The notes below the pieces were generated by a model, which was given only the letters and a program-made list of their open reading frames with translations, did no database searches and had not been told where the DNA came from. This document shows positions 2,273 to 8,139 of a DNA stretch of 55,153 nucleotides, one piece after another. A program made the translations under genes and the position numbers. How positions within the stretch are numbered: the stretch's first letter is position 1; each line of letters starts with the position of its first letter. This stretch comes from Patescibacteria group bacterium (GTDB taxonomy: Bacteria > Patescibacteriota > Minisyncoccia > UBA6257 > 02-FULL-45-10c): positions 1-55,153 of the forward strand of contig JAGWYA010000006.1 in NCBI GenBank assembly GCA_018969615.1. The letters run 5' to 3'.

Positions 2273-3307
2273 ATGCGGAGAGCTGCGGCCGTCGGTTCGA
2301 TTGCGCTGACAGTGGTCTTTGCGTTCGCGATTTCTCGCGGTCTTGCGCAATCGGGATCTCGAGAGGCTCCCACTGCTGATGTTGCGTACGGCGACCCCGG
2401 CCATCGCGCCTTCTTTAACTATCAGAAGTTTCTGATAGGTCGTGGTGAGGGCGGGATAACATCGGAACAGTGGCAGTCTCTGGATCGGGAGGCTCGTTCC
2501 CAGCGCATCGGTCGGGAGGAGACGTTCCTTGCAAAGAAGTATAAGGAGCTTTCCGCCAAGACGAATCTGAGCGGCGCCGAGCGTGACTTCTTTGTTGCTG
2601 TCTGGGGGCAGCAGGACTCTTCCGGGAGGGTCAGAGATCGCTCAGGTGAACCTGCCACCCAGCGAATGGCGACCACGGCGATTGCGGGGCGCTTATCAAA
2701 GTTGGCCACCAAAGTCGGCGGTGTGGAGGGTTCTCTCGATACGCTGTATGACGGCGGTCGGCGACATGACGGGGTCGTGGGAGTCCCTGGGCAGAATCGC
2801 CGAGCACAGTACTCCGGAGCCCTTTCTCCGAAGGCTCCCGTGCGATTGGACGCTGTGGCGCCTGTTCCGCTTCCGACCCGCAAAGATGAATCGTCTGGGA
2901 AAGGCGGTATCCCGTGGGGGCTCCTGGGAATGGTGACGGTCGCCCTGCTCCCCATTGCCTATGCATTCGCGAAGCGTGAGGTGAAGAAGGAACTGGCGAG
3001 CGAGTTTGATCTGGACATACGCTTGAGTCCATCTGAAAAATCCTCGGATGATCCGCCTGCGCCTGACGACACAAAGGTCAGTTGCGCAAAGACCTGTGAC
3101 AGCACGTGCCCGGCAACGTGCGAGAATAGTTGCGGGAAGGGCACGTGCGAAGATTCGTGCCCATCGACCTGTTCCGGCACCTGCCAAGACACCTGCCTTG
3201 CGACCTGCGAAGATACGTGCAACTTCACCTGCAAGGATACCTGTCCGAGCACGTGCCCCTGTCCTAAGACAGGCTATACCTGTGGGGACACCTGCGGGTG
3301 TCCCTAG
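2273..3307 (+). CDS. Signal-peptide and TM-anchored protein whose C-terminal tail resembles a class I lanthipeptide precursor (FDLD leader box plus Cys/Thr tetrad-repeat core)
   Basis: N-terminal signal-like MRRAAAVGSIALTVVFAFAISRGLAQS. TM helix GIPWGLLGMVTVALLPIAYAFA (nt 2906-2971) followed by KREVKKE, consistent with positive-inside topology. ELASEFDLDIRLSPSEKSS (FDLD at nt 3005-3016) resembles the subtilin and nisin leader box. The core at nt 3080-3304 has 19 Cys, 17 of them directly preceded by Ser or Thr. The stop overlaps the lanC start. Confidence 0.6.
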   Translation: MRRAAAVGSIALTVVFAFAISRGLAQSGSREAPTADVAYGDPGHRAFFNYQKFLIGRGEGGITSEQWQSLDREARSQRIGREETFLAKKYKELSAKTNLSGAERDFFVAVWGQQDSSGRVRDRSGEPATQRMATTAIAGRLSKLATKVGGVEGSLDTLYDGGRRHDGVVGVPGQNRRAQYSGALSPKAPVRLDAVAPVPLPTRKDESSGKGGIPWGLLGMVTVALLPIAYAFAKREVKKELASEFDLDIRLSPSEKSSDDPPAPDDTKVSCAKTCDSTCPATCENSCGKGTCEDSCPSTCSGTCQDTCLATCEDTCNFTCKDTCPSTCPCPKTGYTCGDTCGCP

Positions 3308-4623
3308 CGGCAACGCGGAACTCGTTGCGCTGGGCGCCCGTCGTTACTTCTAAGGGGGCGGAAGCAGTAATTTGCGCTGCAGCCGAGCGCATCCGCGACC
3401 CGCAGAATATAGCAACAGCCAATGCTCTGGCTGTATGCCAAACCGCGTATCCCGAATCCATCCATTGGCAGGGATATAGCGTAGCCCAGGGCTTCGCGGG
3501 GCTCGCGATTGCGTGCGGATATCTAAATGACTGCTTCCCATCGAAGGGGTGGGATGCGGTCGGCCACCAATATCTCGCACAGGCCGTACGCTCTTTGGAG
3601 CAATCGCAGAATCCTCCGTTGGGCCTTTTCGCCGGTCTAAGCGGAGTCGGGTTTGCGGCCGACTCGCTTTCGGCGGGCGGGAAGCGGTACGGGAAGCTCC
3701 TGGCTAAGATTGATTCGCATCTCCAGGCGAAGGTGCCCGTGTTCTGCGAGGATCTCGTACAACAAAAGCCAGGCTGCGCAGTTGTGCAGTTCGATGTCAT
3801 CTCAGGTCTTGCCGGCATCGGCTTGTATCTGATGATCCGTAGGGAGGGTATCGGCGACGACGCTTTGGTGGCGATACTGGAATGCTTTATCCATCTCTCC
3901 GAGGAAGTCGATGGGTTGCCGCGCTGGCACTCTCCGACGGCGCTGCTCGACAAAAACATGTTGAAGCGGTTCCCCGGAGGGAACATGAATCTGGGCTTGG
4001 CGCATGGCATTGCGGGACCGCTCGCATTGATGTCGAAGGCCGCCGTAAGCGGTGTTCGTGTTCCGGGTCTCGAGGATGCGATTGACCGAATTGTGCGCCG
4101 GCTGCTCAGCGCGCAAGACCACGATGAGTGGGGTGTCGGTTGGCCGGATGCTATTCCTATTTCCGCCGGAGAGCCGAAAGCATCGTTGTCGTACCGCCCG
4201 GCATGGTGTTATGGCACTGCAGGAGTCGCTCGCGCGTTATGGCTGGCCGCCGCGGCATCTGGAGATCGGAGTATTCAGAATATTGCGATTCAGGCGATGG
4301 CTGGGGTGTCCGAACGGCTTGCTCGGGTGCCTGCGGATCTTCCGCCAACGTTTTGCCATGGGAAAGCGGGTCTTTTGCAAATACTGCTCCGCTTCTATCA
4401 GGATACGGGGATGGAAGTGTTCGCTGGAGACGCGCGCCGACTATTCGATCAAATCGTTGCGACATACGATTCTGCGGCGCCGATGGGCTTTTATTGCGTG
4501 GAGCCTGGAAAGCGCCGCGTCGACAACCCGGGTTTTCTTGATGGCGCGCCTGGCGTCGTGTTGACACTCCTGGCGGCGACGAAACCCGTAGAGCCGACAT
4601 GGGATCGGCTGTTCGCAATCTAG
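3298..4623 (+). CDS. lanC: LanC-type lanthionine cyclase
   Basis: The three LanC signature motifs are present: NLGLAHGIAGP (catalytic His), WCYGTAGVARAL (Zn Cys) and FCHGKAGLLQIL (Zn Cys-His). There are repeated G-x-x-G helix-hairpin motifs. The GTG start overlaps the upstream stop by 10 nt. Confidence 0.85.
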   Translation: MSLAATRNSLRWAPVVTSKGAEAVICAAAERIRDPQNIATANALAVCQTAYPESIHWQGYSVAQGFAGLAIACGYLNDCFPSKGWDAVGHQYLAQAVRSLEQSQNPPLGLFAGLSGVGFAADSLSAGGKRYGKLLAKIDSHLQAKVPVFCEDLVQQKPGCAVVQFDVISGLAGIGLYLMIRREGIGDDALVAILECFIHLSEEVDGLPRWHSPTALLDKNMLKRFPGGNMNLGLAHGIAGPLALMSKAAVSGVRVPGLEDAIDRIVRRLLSAQDHDEWGVGWPDAIPISAGEPKASLSYRPAWCYGTAGVARALWLAAAASGDRSIQNIAIQAMAGVSERLARVPADLPPTFCHGKAGLLQILLRFYQDTGMEVFAGDARRLFDQIVATYDSAAPMGFYCVEPGKRRVDNPGFLDGAPGVVLTLLAATKPVEPTWDRLFAI

Positions 4624-4626
4624 GGC

Positions 4627-7600: not shown

Positions 7601-7728
7601 AAATAAGCCATAGCGTCATTCACATCCACTGTAATAGATTGCTGGGTGCCGACAGGGTTGCCGAGCAGGCGGCTGAAGGGCTCCTTGTTCGTATGCGGCT
7701 GAGCCTGGGAAGTAGAAGCCGTCGCTAG
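4627..7728 (+). CDS. lanB: Full-length class I lanthipeptide dehydratase (LanB: glutamylation plus elimination domains)
   Basis: 1033 aa. The N-terminus CDFLAVRAPMLPVDVYFSL is typical of the lantibiotic dehydratase N-domain. The C-terminus WLFAKLYGD...WHYLRYNDPEPHVRLRFKG is typical of the SpaB_C/thiopeptide-type elimination domain. Starts 4 nt after the lanC stop. Confidence 0.85.
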   Translation: MAKRSKAYPRYEPCDFLAVRAPMLPVDVYFSLSNAAELRSLAARPDIRRALAIGSPDLEAALDKWLRSEKQDAHLESRLLRFLIRMSTRPTPYGLFAGVALAHWGKTDISLSEAGFSTRTRPDMEWLLGFVRELEERPEIRASLSYFVNPGVGVRDGRVYLSEKSLLADSAEPTAVSMRANAAVQSILDVAREPIPYRTLLEHLQKRFPRLGMDRGREILDALWRESVLLSELRPSLTRDDVAQRLADRMEQLPLLSDVAARFRRWLDAMASWDLSDEKPIVEYRKLSAEAAAICKTGSANPIQVDMRLSLGGKNVSRSIGDDAARAAEFLLQQMPRGYEDPVIGPYRHAFIAKYGEGPGVPLLELLHPDYGLGPPTHDANAAQGIYERNRAANGARDKFLSQLALNALRDGKMVIDLDREAQELLRGGPGDPESYPPSLDLFVSVAADSIAAVERGEYKVVVAPHAGSPGAGKNLGRFADLLGKEARRALEDVASCESRLLPGRIFAELTYMPRKLRSANVSIRPLVRSHEILWGVQPGGGWERVVPLDELIVGVEKGRFFIHWPRANSDIAICAGHLLNNSRAPIVVRALAEMSRDKMAHPSSFQWGSAAQLPVLPRVQIGRVVLAPAQWRLTREFLANPGEWRKRWAVPRYVYVVENDNRLILDLDDPQQYRELEDELKGLPVNGRVTLQEVFPAFNHAWVMGARGRYFSEFVVSLVRQKSLTARELAASGGGTDARTRRLVSPRVSNQERLRPPGSDWLFAKLYGDAEGEESLIANVLGPFAAEMVRSGYAEGWHYLRYNDPEPHVRLRFKGKPETLSGVVVPRLFRLAQDLIEKKERRSLVVDAYDREIERYGGVVGLAEVEKIFFVDSVTAAELIRLKQSGEMKMPLLHLATLSIDSFLGGLGIPDQEKIHWCREYGLPRDAGSAEYRKGQRELLKVFERLLVGVPDAECGKVAKIFRDRHGKISEVVSQLQAHERDGRLTRSLREISHSVIHIHCNRLLGADRVAEQAAEGLLVRMRLSLGSRSRR

Positions 7729-8139
7729 ATGCGGAAAACGGTTTCACCTGCGTCACGAGTTATAGATGGCGGGAGATGTATGTCTTCAATAGAGATTTGG
7801 GATGGCATCATCATCGGCGCAGTTGGGGGCGCTGCCGCGGGCATTGCGCTCTCACTTTTTGAGCTTCTCAAAAGTAGAATCGCTGAAGAGCGCGATAAGC
7901 GGGCGGTCTATCGGTGGCTCGTGGCTAACACCACCCCGAAGCCGGGGGAGCAATATCGCTCGACCAAAGAAATTGCGAGTTGGACAAATCTCACGATGGA
8001 GCGGGCGCGATACATTTGTAGTGTTCACCCGCAAATTCTTATGAACGCTAGGACGTCCGAGGATATGGATGATCTTTGGAGCGTCCATGACCGGGGTAAT
8101 ATCAGCATCTATGAGAAGCGCGGGCTGTTGGGTCTCTGA
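7729..8139 (+). CDS. Small membrane protein (one TM helix) with a possible winged-helix C-terminal part; unknown function
   Basis: The ATG directly abuts the lanB stop (TAGATG). An alternative start at MSSIEIW is possible. TM segment IIIGAVGGAAAGIALSLFELL. No resemblance to known LanI, LanT or LanP noticed. Confidence 0.4.
   Translation: MRKTVSPASRVIDGGRCMSSIEIWDGIIIGAVGGAAAGIALSLFELLKSRIAEERDKRAVYRWLVANTTPKPGEQYRSTKEIASWTNLTMERARYICSVHPQILMNARTSEDMDDLWSVHDRGNISIYEKRGLLGL

Follow-up and report, generated by a model that had tools for sequence, protein, structure and literature searches.

A class I lanthipeptide precursor module within a predicted membrane protein of a Patescibacteria group bacterium

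Can the substrate of lanthipeptide enzymes be part of a membrane protein, or does a long open reading frame (ORF) that seems to join the two conceal an ordinary free peptide? This question is raised by a gene in a 55,153-nucleotide (nt) stretch of contig JAGWYA010000006.1 (assembly GCA_018969615.1) from a Patescibacteria group bacterium, which was analysed as a whole and is called the window. An earlier note, made from the sequence without database searches, had described here a LanB/LanC operon and inferred that a leader-plus-core module is fused to a membrane protein of 344 amino acids (aa). We identified a four-gene class I lanthipeptide module at window positions 1678-7728, encoding a secreted partner protein, the 344-aa precursor, LanC and LanB. 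The fusion, which was the central inference of the note, held up: it is kept in frame in nine further loci, the gene is under purifying selection, and its N-terminal half encodes a confidently modelled domain. We consider it probable, at roughly two chances in three, that LanB and LanC (together LanBC) staple the tethered cytoplasmic tail of this protein and that the product is cell-associated and acts on the producer's own side.

The precursor, its enzymes and its partner

The genes of the module and a following 136-aa ORF lie on the same strand; in order, the first two are 16 nt apart, the next pair overlap by 10 nt, 3 nt separate lanC from lanB, and the 136-aa ORF follows lanB with a spacing of 0 nt (Table 1). 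The earlier note had remarked on this tight packing of five ORFs, and the features that it listed were all recovered in place. In the precursor, a signal peptide is followed by a four-helix domain, a low-complexity linker, a single transmembrane (TM) helix, a cluster of Lys and Arg (K/R), a leader with an FDLDIRL box and a Cys-rich core. The AlphaFold2 model of the four-helix domain (~80 aa) reached a predicted local distance difference test score (pLDDT) of 92.7 and a predicted template modelling score of 0.81, and lengthening it to 134 aa added only a low-confidence part, with pLDDT below 50 in the linker. Two residues of the linker motif, D128 and G129 of alignment A7, were invariant in 34 sequences. 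The core contains 17 (S/T)C dipeptides, so that Ser or Thr directly precedes 17 of its 19 cysteines, and the Cys-Cys spacing is exactly 4 in 14 of 18 cases. Alignment A1 showed no variation in the FDLDIRL box or at the Thr (T) and Cys (C) positions of the repeat. No tandem repeat was detected at the DNA level under the TC repeats, and there was no double-glycine or LanP-type cleavage motif before the core. The window protein had no Pfam or NCBIfam match; its homologues showed weak or faint matches to PF27846 (tSAM_targ_Cxxx_rpt). These observations agree with the earlier note, which had seen a signal-peptide-like start at the first methionine, one internal TM helix followed by KREVKKE, an FNLD/FDLD-type box and then a 75-aa Cys/Thr core, and had taken this C-terminus as the only candidate substrate; the operon holds no other LanA candidate.

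The tail is predicted to lie in the cytoplasm. Hydrophobic N-terminal segments of Sec type are present across the family of proteins that share this anchor. Because these proteins have signal peptides, carry more Lys and Arg on the C-terminal than on the N-terminal side of the TM helix (101 vs 62 within the 15 flanking residues of 30 members) and have a K/R cluster directly after it, we infer an N-out/C-in (type I) topology with leader and core in the cytoplasm. This was the orientation for which the earlier note had proposed a check by topology prediction, and hydropathy, charge bias and signal peptide all agree with it.

Four full-length homologues (39-42% identity, 347-356 aa) were found among 5.8 billion proteins; they have the same order of parts, and about 30 positions in the N-terminal half are invariant. 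The whole architecture, from signal peptide, domain and linker to TM helix, K/R cluster, FDLDIRL box and core, was found in nine further loci (related loci are given L-numbers and representatives P-numbers below). Eight of the nine also have lanC, accompanied by lanB if the contig is long enough to include it. Further anchored precursors lie beside related LanBC genes in L012, in L003, where the N-domain of this Elusimicrobiaceae metagenome-assembled genome (MAG) is duplicated, and in L019/L020, and the fusion also occurs in the representatives P0023 and P0033. It is kept in frame across LanC divergence down to 37% identity. From the three closest genes (L001, L002 and L006), dN/dS was estimated as 0.05-0.25 for the N-domain, 0.26-0.46 for the linker, 0-0.34 for the TM segment, 0-0.11 for the leader and 0.08-0.31 for the core. 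Because these values are below 0.5 in every segment, the whole frame is under protein-level selection, and the long ORF is real over its whole length. The earlier note had reasoned that its proposal would fail if the tail always occurred as a separate small ORF, or if the upstream 230 codons lacked conservation. Anchored and free forms of the tail both exist, the upstream codons are under purifying selection and encode a confidently folded domain, and the N-domain, TM helix and tail co-occur with lanBC in other loci, a co-occurrence that the note had suggested looking for. A collection of 15 billion proteins contains the LanB, LanC and partner of this contig, and the exact 344-aa product is missing from it; gene calling for the public record has probably passed over the precursor gene. 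INPHARED phages, PLSDB plasmids and IMG/VR yielded no relative of the anchored precursor, and two IMG/VR contigs with distant LanC genes had no FDLD-type precursor.

The two enzymes are complete. LanC matched MadC (8byk, 4.7e-57) and NisC (1e-15), and its WCYG and CHG zinc-ligand motifs are in register with those of MadC and invariant in 10 LanCs. LanB aligned end to end with MadB (9g04, 8e-94), and also with MibB and NisB. The claims of a LanC with three signature motifs (AHGIAGP, WCYGTAG and CHGKAG, all present in the translation) and of a full-length, two-domain LanB were borne out, and the profile searches that the earlier note had recommended, with Lant_dehydr_N, Lant_dehydr_C and PF05147, all gave matches (Table 1). 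Judged by its two-domain LanB, stand-alone LanC with zinc ligands and adjacent FDLD leader and core, the locus belongs to class I; its precursor does not have the short, free form expected of that class, being 344 aa long with a predicted signal peptide, a TM helix and a conserved fusion.

The partner co-varies with the LanBC-type anchor. Its homologues, with 53-63% identity, stand beside the precursor in L001, L002, L005, L006, L011 and L012. No LanBC-type anchored precursor lacks this companion gene, which is present once in the window, L001, L002, L005, L006 and L012, twice in L003 and three times in L019/L020. It is also kept in L011, where the precursor is free, and it was absent from the anchor loci with radical S-adenosylmethionine (rSAM) enzymes and from the free-precursor loci L004 and L013-L015. 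An L019 copy matched CBM_4_9 (5.9e-7, 30.4 bits against a cut-off of 25.9), and the window protein had a weak PDB match to the sugar-binding module of endoglucanase 8ag9_A. The most plausible role for this protein is in the periplasm, as a binding partner or a sensor that serves the four-helix domain.

No related locus has a homologue of the 136-aa ORF, Pfam, NCBIfam and PADLOC gave no family match for it, and it was dropped as a member of the system. The earlier note had counted this small TM protein in the operon; it probably lies outside the conserved system. The promoter-like site upstream of the first gene is a possible operon promoter; promoter and terminator scans of the region gave no more sites than expected from shuffled sequence. 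An Rfam scan found tRNAs only, and no PADLOC model matched the operon proteins.

Table 1. Coordinates of the module, the parts of its precursor and neighbouring features in the window
Feature	Positions	Strand	Remarks
Promoter-like site	1597..1625	+	TTGCCG-17-TAGAAT with TG; ~50 nt upstream of first gene; consensus match only
Secreted partner	1678..2256	+	192 aa; predicted N-terminal signal peptide, CBM4_9-like beta-sandwich fold
Membrane-anchored LanA (predicted)	2273..3307	+	344 aa; signal peptide, periplasmic domain, TM helix, cytoplasmic leader-plus-core tail
Sec-type signal peptide (predicted)	2273..2347	+	aa 1-25, MRRAAAVGSIALTVVFAFAISRGLA followed by QS; predicted cleavage between GLA and QS; sequence reading, Kyte-Doolittle peak aa 3-21
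Periplasmic four-helix domain (predicted)	2369..2611	+	aa 33-113, DPxHxxFFNYQxFL ... AVWG
Low-complexity periplasmic linker (predicted)	2612..2920	+	conserved (W)xxx(F/Y)DG motif (LYDGG, aa 158-162)
Single TM helix (predicted)	2921..2971	+	aa 217-233, LLGMVTVALLPIAYAFA; mean hydropathy 2.12
Cytoplasmic leader (predicted)	2972..3079	+	KREVKKE, FDLDIRLS box (nt 3005-3028, aa 245-252), acidic/Pro-rich spacer
Core of (S/T)Cxx repeats	3080..3304	+	75 aa, aa 270-344; 19 Cys, 22 Ser/Thr
LanC cyclase	3298..4623	+	441 aa; PF05147 3.7e-60
LanB, glutamylation and elimination domains	4627..7728	+	1033 aa, full length; PF04738 (Lant_dehydr_N) 1.3e-153, PF14028 (Lant_dehydr_C) 8.2e-48
Single-TM ORF	7729..8139	+	136 aa; starts at lanB stop codon
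Dsr1-like ORF	29..1573	+	514 aa
HNH_5 gene	8190..9332	+	
Serine recombinase	9322..11265	-	two C-terminal HTH_3 domains
Response_reg gene	11574..12392	+	272 aa
Serine recombinase	16711..18315	+	
tRNA-His	18247..18319	-	

The anchor family and the free relatives of the tail

When 1.84 billion representatives were searched with a profile of the periplasmic part, 56 clusters at 50% identity were obtained, 47 of them with E <=1e-10. The four-helix domain had no Pfam or NCBIfam model, and fold searches of PDB and BFVD gave no E below 1. A 32-sequence N-domain alignment found no match in the 5.8-billion protein set, within the limit of the word index used, and a narrower alignment found 4 metagenome loci only. 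Members of group A (~310-500 aa) begin with a signal peptide and one or two N-domains; a linker that ends in WxxxFDG leads to a TM helix and a K/R cluster, and the tail has 57-145 aa. The window protein is a full member by all of these features. Group B consists of 19 clusters (~504-550 aa) in which the same domain is followed by a secreted HExxH domain. Its members (P0036, P0037, P0040, P0043, P0045-P0048, P0050, P0052, P0053, P0055-P0059 and P0062-P0064) have a signal peptide, the domain, WxxxFDG and a secreted domain of ~350 aa with the invariant stretch HEFQHIYDMYxGRYYTLDSExRGFK, for which no Pfam, NCBIfam or PDB relative was found.

The tails of group A differ, and their neighbours differ with them. 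Some tails have the FDLD box and a Cys/Thr core, some consist of plain Cxxx repeats, some are Ala/Val-rich after a helical leader-like segment, and some combine 'TLDELGRP' with Cys/Pro repeats. As far as the contigs reach, the FDLD tails adjoin lanC/lanB, in the window, L001, L002, L006, L012, L003 and L019/L020. The Cxxx-repeat tail of L008/L009 lies directly upstream of an rSAM triad with matches to TIGR04115 (3.7e-179), TIGR04119 (2.8e-64) and TIGR04116 (1.3e-28), which is followed by a secreted S8-like protein, and the L008 maturase matches the PapB family (8.6e-61). In L016/L017, an Ala/Val tail is followed by genes for a YydG-like rSAM/SPASM enzyme and for a CPBP/Rce1-like intramembrane protease; in L018, a Cys/Pro tail stands between an rSAM maturase of the type that acts on ribosomally synthesised peptides with post-translational modifications (RiPPs) and an S41 peptidase. 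A peptide maturase is adjacent in 13 of the 14 anchored-precursor loci with readable flanks, a small sample in which L005 is the exception. Because the type of tail matches the neighbouring enzyme, LanBC or one of the rSAM sets, the anchor looks like a general carrier and the tails like maturase substrates; this pairing is the strongest argument for the suggestion, drawn from a small sample. At L005 (905-1948), the anchored FDLD precursor P0001 and its partner gene are followed, in place of lanC/lanB, by four reverse-strand genes without family matches, and the core stops early (…CHCPQTSRPA); the locus may be split or in decay.

Free forms of the same tail were found beside the closest LanBs, those with 47-53% identity to the window LanB. 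L011 encodes a free LanA of 116 aa that starts 12 residues before the box and whose leader and core are 73% identical to the window tail, above any anchored homologue, and L013 has a free LanA of ~125 aa. More than 100 LanBs with 41-44% identity, from soil and sediment MAGs, Chloroflexi and Streptomyces, adjoin free peptides of 107-143 aa with an M..HDEFDLD(I/V)RL start, long Cys/Thr cores and no transporters, and more distant free precursors begin 5 residues before the box. Because a near-identical core occurs free beside related LanBC in L011 and L013, the tail appears to be a bona fide LanA module and the anchor an add-on. A crude LanC tree contains two separate anchored groups, one with the window, L001, L006 and L012 and the other with L003 and L019; free-precursor loci lie between them. 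Since the anchored loci are split in this way and L011 is nested inside the first group, the anchor appears to have been gained or lost more than once.

Two other loci show how free precursors vary. In an Acidobacteriaceae MAG (L004, JASHVE010000512, 722-1534), a 270-aa LanA beside LanC has an N-terminal extension of ~110 aa without signal peptide or TM helix, then the FDLDIRL box and a 130-aa core with 31 Cys; this is an oversized class I precursor of another kind. On the 346-kb contig of L015 (5209-6520), two called and probably a third FDLDVRL-type free precursor (112-143 aa, 20-24 Cys) stand in tandem upstream of one LanC/LanB pair.

Proposed mechanism and competing explanations

LanB depends on glutamyl-tRNA, and both LanB and rSAM enzymes work in the cytoplasm. 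In the mechanism that we propose, the Sec signal peptide would send the ~80-aa four-helix domain and the flexible linker to the periplasm, the single TM helix would anchor the protein, and the final ~110 residues would be left in the cytoplasm as a complete LanA module with FDLDIRL box, ~20-residue spacer and 75-aa (S/T)Cxx core. LanB would dock on the FDLD box and dehydrate Thr and Ser of the tail via glutamyl-tRNA. LanC would then add neighbouring Cys thiols to give up to ~17 small (methyl)lanthionine rings, closed from Cys(i) to dehydrobutyrine (Dhb)(i+3) or from Dhb(i) to Cys(i+5). Almost every Cys would be used, because the (S/T)C pairs and the cysteines are present in a ratio near 1:1. 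The result would be a rigid, protease-resistant thioether ladder tethered under the membrane, which would act at the cell's own cytoplasmic or membrane side, either tethered or freed by a protease encoded elsewhere, and the periplasmic domain and CBM4_9-like partner would provide localisation or sensing.

The gene content of these loci bears on where the product goes. No transporter, protease or immunity gene was found in the anchored loci of the window, L001, L002, L006, L012, L003, L019 and L020, or in the free-precursor relatives L011 and L013-L015. Among the ORFs of 200 aa or more in the window, Pfam scans detected neither an ABC transporter nor a subtilase nor a gene of LanFEG type, in line with the earlier report of no LanT, LanP or LanFEG/LanI in the window, and the sole transporters there are one MFS and one EamA gene in its housekeeping part. 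The lack of an exporter, a leader protease and an immunity gene argues that the product is not a secreted lantibiotic and probably stays with the producer. As to its form, the proteases of the rSAM branch suggest regulated release, and the conserved periplasmic domain and partner suggest a transmembrane device.

Several points weigh against a stapled, tethered tail with a role at the producer's own side. The predicted topology is based on hydropathy, charge bias and the look of the signal peptide only, and both the modification of the tail and the full-length protein as the translated species are predictions from sequence. In L011 and L013 the core exists without the anchor, and the GTG in the window could yield a free peptide as well. 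L005 carries an anchored precursor and a partner with no lanBC in the following 2.8 kb. The S8, S41 and CPBP proteases in other anchor-type loci hint at release by cleavage, not at permanent tethering. A defence role is guilt by association, and L019/L020 lie among housekeeping, not defence, genes.

One alternative is that the substrate is a free LanA of ~108-125 aa whose translation begins internally, at the GTG of V237 or the ATG of M220, and that the long ORF is incidental or secondary, which the earlier note had offered as its own alternative. The free relatives beside close LanBC genes (L011 and L013), the distant ones that begin just before the box and the missing 344-aa entry in the public protein collection all speak for it, as do an ATG 6 codons before the box in L001, L002 and L006, which is perhaps a relic of a formerly free lanA, and an in-frame GTG 8 codons before the box in the window. 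However, four of the eight anchored homologues (L012, L005, L003 and L019) lack any ATG, GTG or TTG in the stretch from the TM helix to the box, and an internal start was rejected as a conserved feature. The window GTG has no Shine-Dalgarno-like motif at proper spacing. Moreover, the frame is open, with N-domain, linker and TM segment under purifying selection and the fusion kept down to 37% LanC identity, and the stop codon that an upstream gene would require to be separate is missing from all nine further anchored loci. What stood of this alternative concerns the window itself, where a start at the GTG could give a peptide like the free LanAs of L011 and L013; as an account of the system, we regard it as improbable.

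It could also be supposed that the anchor is an oversized pro-region and that the modified tail is cut and exported by genes elsewhere, as a secreted antimicrobial or signalling lanthipeptide. This would be the usual course for RiPPs, some of which are known to depend on proteases and transporters encoded at a distance (10.64898/2026.08.26.747419), and the proteases of other anchor-type loci would fit. Yet the eight anchored loci with lanC or lanBC, like L011 and L013-L015, carry none of the genes needed, the core is not preceded by a double-glycine or LanP-type motif, a 75-aa core with ~17 rings is far above known secreted lantibiotics in size, and a simple pro-region needs neither a conserved periplasmic domain nor a partner; the chance that this account is right seems small. 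A Cys-rich tail might, on the other hand, be an unmodified metal-binding or redox domain, similar to metallothionein, with LanBC acting elsewhere or inactive. Cxxx-spaced Cys repeats do look like metal-binding sequences, and L005 has an anchored protein without adjacent lanBC. Against this, the FDLDIRL box is invariant and confined to tails with lanBC neighbours, tails without FDLD stand beside rSAM enzymes, Ser or Thr before 17 of 19 Cys is a signature of lanthionine chemistry rather than of metal binding, and the operon would be left without a LanA. We therefore judge a metal-binding tail very improbable, and stapling of the tethered tail by LanBC is the reading that we prefer.

A wider proposal can be built on it, which we put forward tentatively and think rather unlikely to hold in all its parts. 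The scaffold may define a class of type I TM proteins with cytoplasmic tails stapled by RiPP enzymes, LanBC in the window and several rSAM maturases elsewhere. These proteins would be transmembrane devices armed in advance, in which a periplasmic event controls or releases a thioether-stapled intracellular effector and in which the LanBC branch serves against phages or mobile elements; the event would be sensed via the four-helix domain and the CBM-like partner, or periplasmic proteases would act as the trigger.

Genomic setting, known systems and significance

The operon lies between a Dsr1-like ORF and an HNH_5 gene, in an island with two large serine recombinases. Because its upstream neighbour is Dsr1-like, the operon appears to belong to a defence or mobile island. 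This neighbour matched the PADLOC Dsr1 model (2e-12) at profile positions 890-1005 of 1227 only, and had no SIR2 part and no Pfam match. The HNH_5 domain is joined to a C-terminal region of ~320 aa without assignment. A homologue with 64% identity follows lanB in L002 (15733-16695) and none was found in the other loci; the gene was rejected as a member of the system and may be an independent defence gene travelling with the operon. The island also holds a Response_reg gene (6e-7) with a hydrophobic C-terminus. The second recombinase ends inside or against tRNA-His, and the island appears to span about window 1-18.3 kb and to end at this tRNA gene, with housekeeping genes beyond. There, a short 489-aa IF-2-like GTPase lies ~25 kb from nusA, not adjacent to it (21222-22691 and 47337-48557, both on the minus strand), and in the last 2 kb of the window (53001-55153) the GC content falls from ~0.55 to 0.39-0.45.

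Related loci have similar neighbours. The L001 operon is placed between PDC-S46 (7.5e-280) and an E2/E2/E1/JAB set, with patatin, TIR and TrwB genes upstream; L011 adjoins GAP1-N1/PNP, DO-GTPase1, DO-GTPase2 and GASH; L012 adjoins two serine recombinases; and L003 adjoins an endolysin and a repressor-like gene. Judged from such neighbours, the majority of the loci belong to defence or mobile islands. Given this setting, and by analogy with the lanthivirins, the system most likely takes part in conflicts with phages or mobile elements.

Lanthiphages, or lanthivirins, are class I lanthipeptides, usually without exporters, that are encoded in defence islands and can act against phages inside the cell (Shomar et al., 10.1101/2024.06.26.600839; also Cell Host Microbe 2026, as cited in 10.64898/2026.08.26.747419). 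Like the window locus, they combine class I LanB/LanC with a location in defence islands or mobile elements, usually without an ABC transporter or protease, and with proposed intracellular action; loci of the window type share both this location and the lack of a transporter. Their leader also has an FDLD box (CoiA1: ...DAFDLDISVLE), and core cysteines are CxxxC-spaced in both. However, lanthiphages have been reported from Actinobacteria only and have free precursors, and no membrane anchor has been described for them, whereas the relatives of the window locus come from Elusimicrobiaceae, Acidobacteriaceae and other uncultured bacteria. The lanthiphage accessory genes LphD (stand-alone PF14028), LphE (PCMT PF01135) and LphF/CoiH were not found in the window operon or among ORFs of at least 200 aa, and the window core has the CxxxC spacing but no TxDxC of the lanthiphage core motif TxDxCxxxCxxxC. 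By these features the window locus resembles the lanthivirins in logic but is not a member of the family.

With canonical class I systems (NisA/B/C, subtilin and MadA/B/C), the locus shares a full LanB, a LanC and an FDLD/FNLD box ~25 residues ahead of the core. MadB and MadC are the best solved-structure matches to its two enzymes, and binding of the FDLD box to the RiPP recognition element of LanB has been shown for MadA/MadB (PMC12241602). Unlike these systems, it has a 344-aa precursor with a predicted signal peptide, periplasmic domain and TM helix before the leader, a 75-aa core with 19 Cys and a secreted CBM-like partner, and it lacks LanT, LanP, LanI and LanFEG.

The CXXX-repeat rSAM system (TIGR04115, TIGR04119, TIGR04116 and the target TIGR04117/PF27846) likewise has a core with Cys at period 4 and, through L008/L009, shares the scaffold of signal peptide, N-domain and TM helix. 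Its genes rSAM_Cxxx_rpt, CXXX_matur and CXXX_rpt_assoc were absent from the window and present in the relative L008/L009 only, and the window protein gave no match to the TIGR04117/PF27846 target model. In contrast to that system, the window locus has a LanB-type FDLD leader, Thr or Ser before almost every Cys and no rSAM enzyme, and its thioethers would be products of dehydration and Michael addition rather than of radical chemistry. Ranthipeptides (freyrasin, PapA/PapB) also have repeated small thioether rings along one peptide, but they differ in chemistry, enzymes and leader and are free and secreted. Cys-rich tails of RiPP type that form the C-terminus of membrane proteins and are encoded beside their maturase have been proposed, from bioinformatic analysis, for TIGR04222 proteins and MerC-bufferin fusions with MNIO enzymes (PMC12452194). 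Those tails are predicted to be periplasmic and belong to multi-TM proteins, whereas the window protein is predicted to be single-pass and type I with a cytoplasmic tail, matched to LanBC or, in its relatives, to rSAM enzymes. This MNIO proposal was the only precedent found in the literature on membrane-anchored or transmembrane lanthipeptide or RiPP precursors, and the earlier remark that no system like this had been described stands with that single addition.

The enzymes, the leader logic and exporter-less intracellular class I lanthipeptides are known. Judged from curated family libraries and from the literature that could be searched, what is new is a LanA built into a predicted type I membrane protein, a secreted partner that co-varies with it, and one anchor reused by LanBC and by several radical-SAM systems. 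Lanthipeptide enzymes are usually thought to act on short free peptides that are later cut and exported; here the apparent substrate is part of a membrane protein, and this arrangement has been kept in distant bacteria. Genome-mining tools that look for short precursors will miss such loci. The predicted thioether scaffold, with ~75 residues and ~17 rings, may be of interest for peptide engineering, and the system is a candidate non-actinobacterial counterpart to the intracellular anti-phage lanthipeptides. The combination of one anchor with at least four peptide-maturase chemistries, LanBC and three rSAM sets, points to an unrecognised use of RiPP chemistry, which would provide membrane proteins of the cell itself with stapled domains, either permanent or releasable, instead of producing secreted antibiotics.

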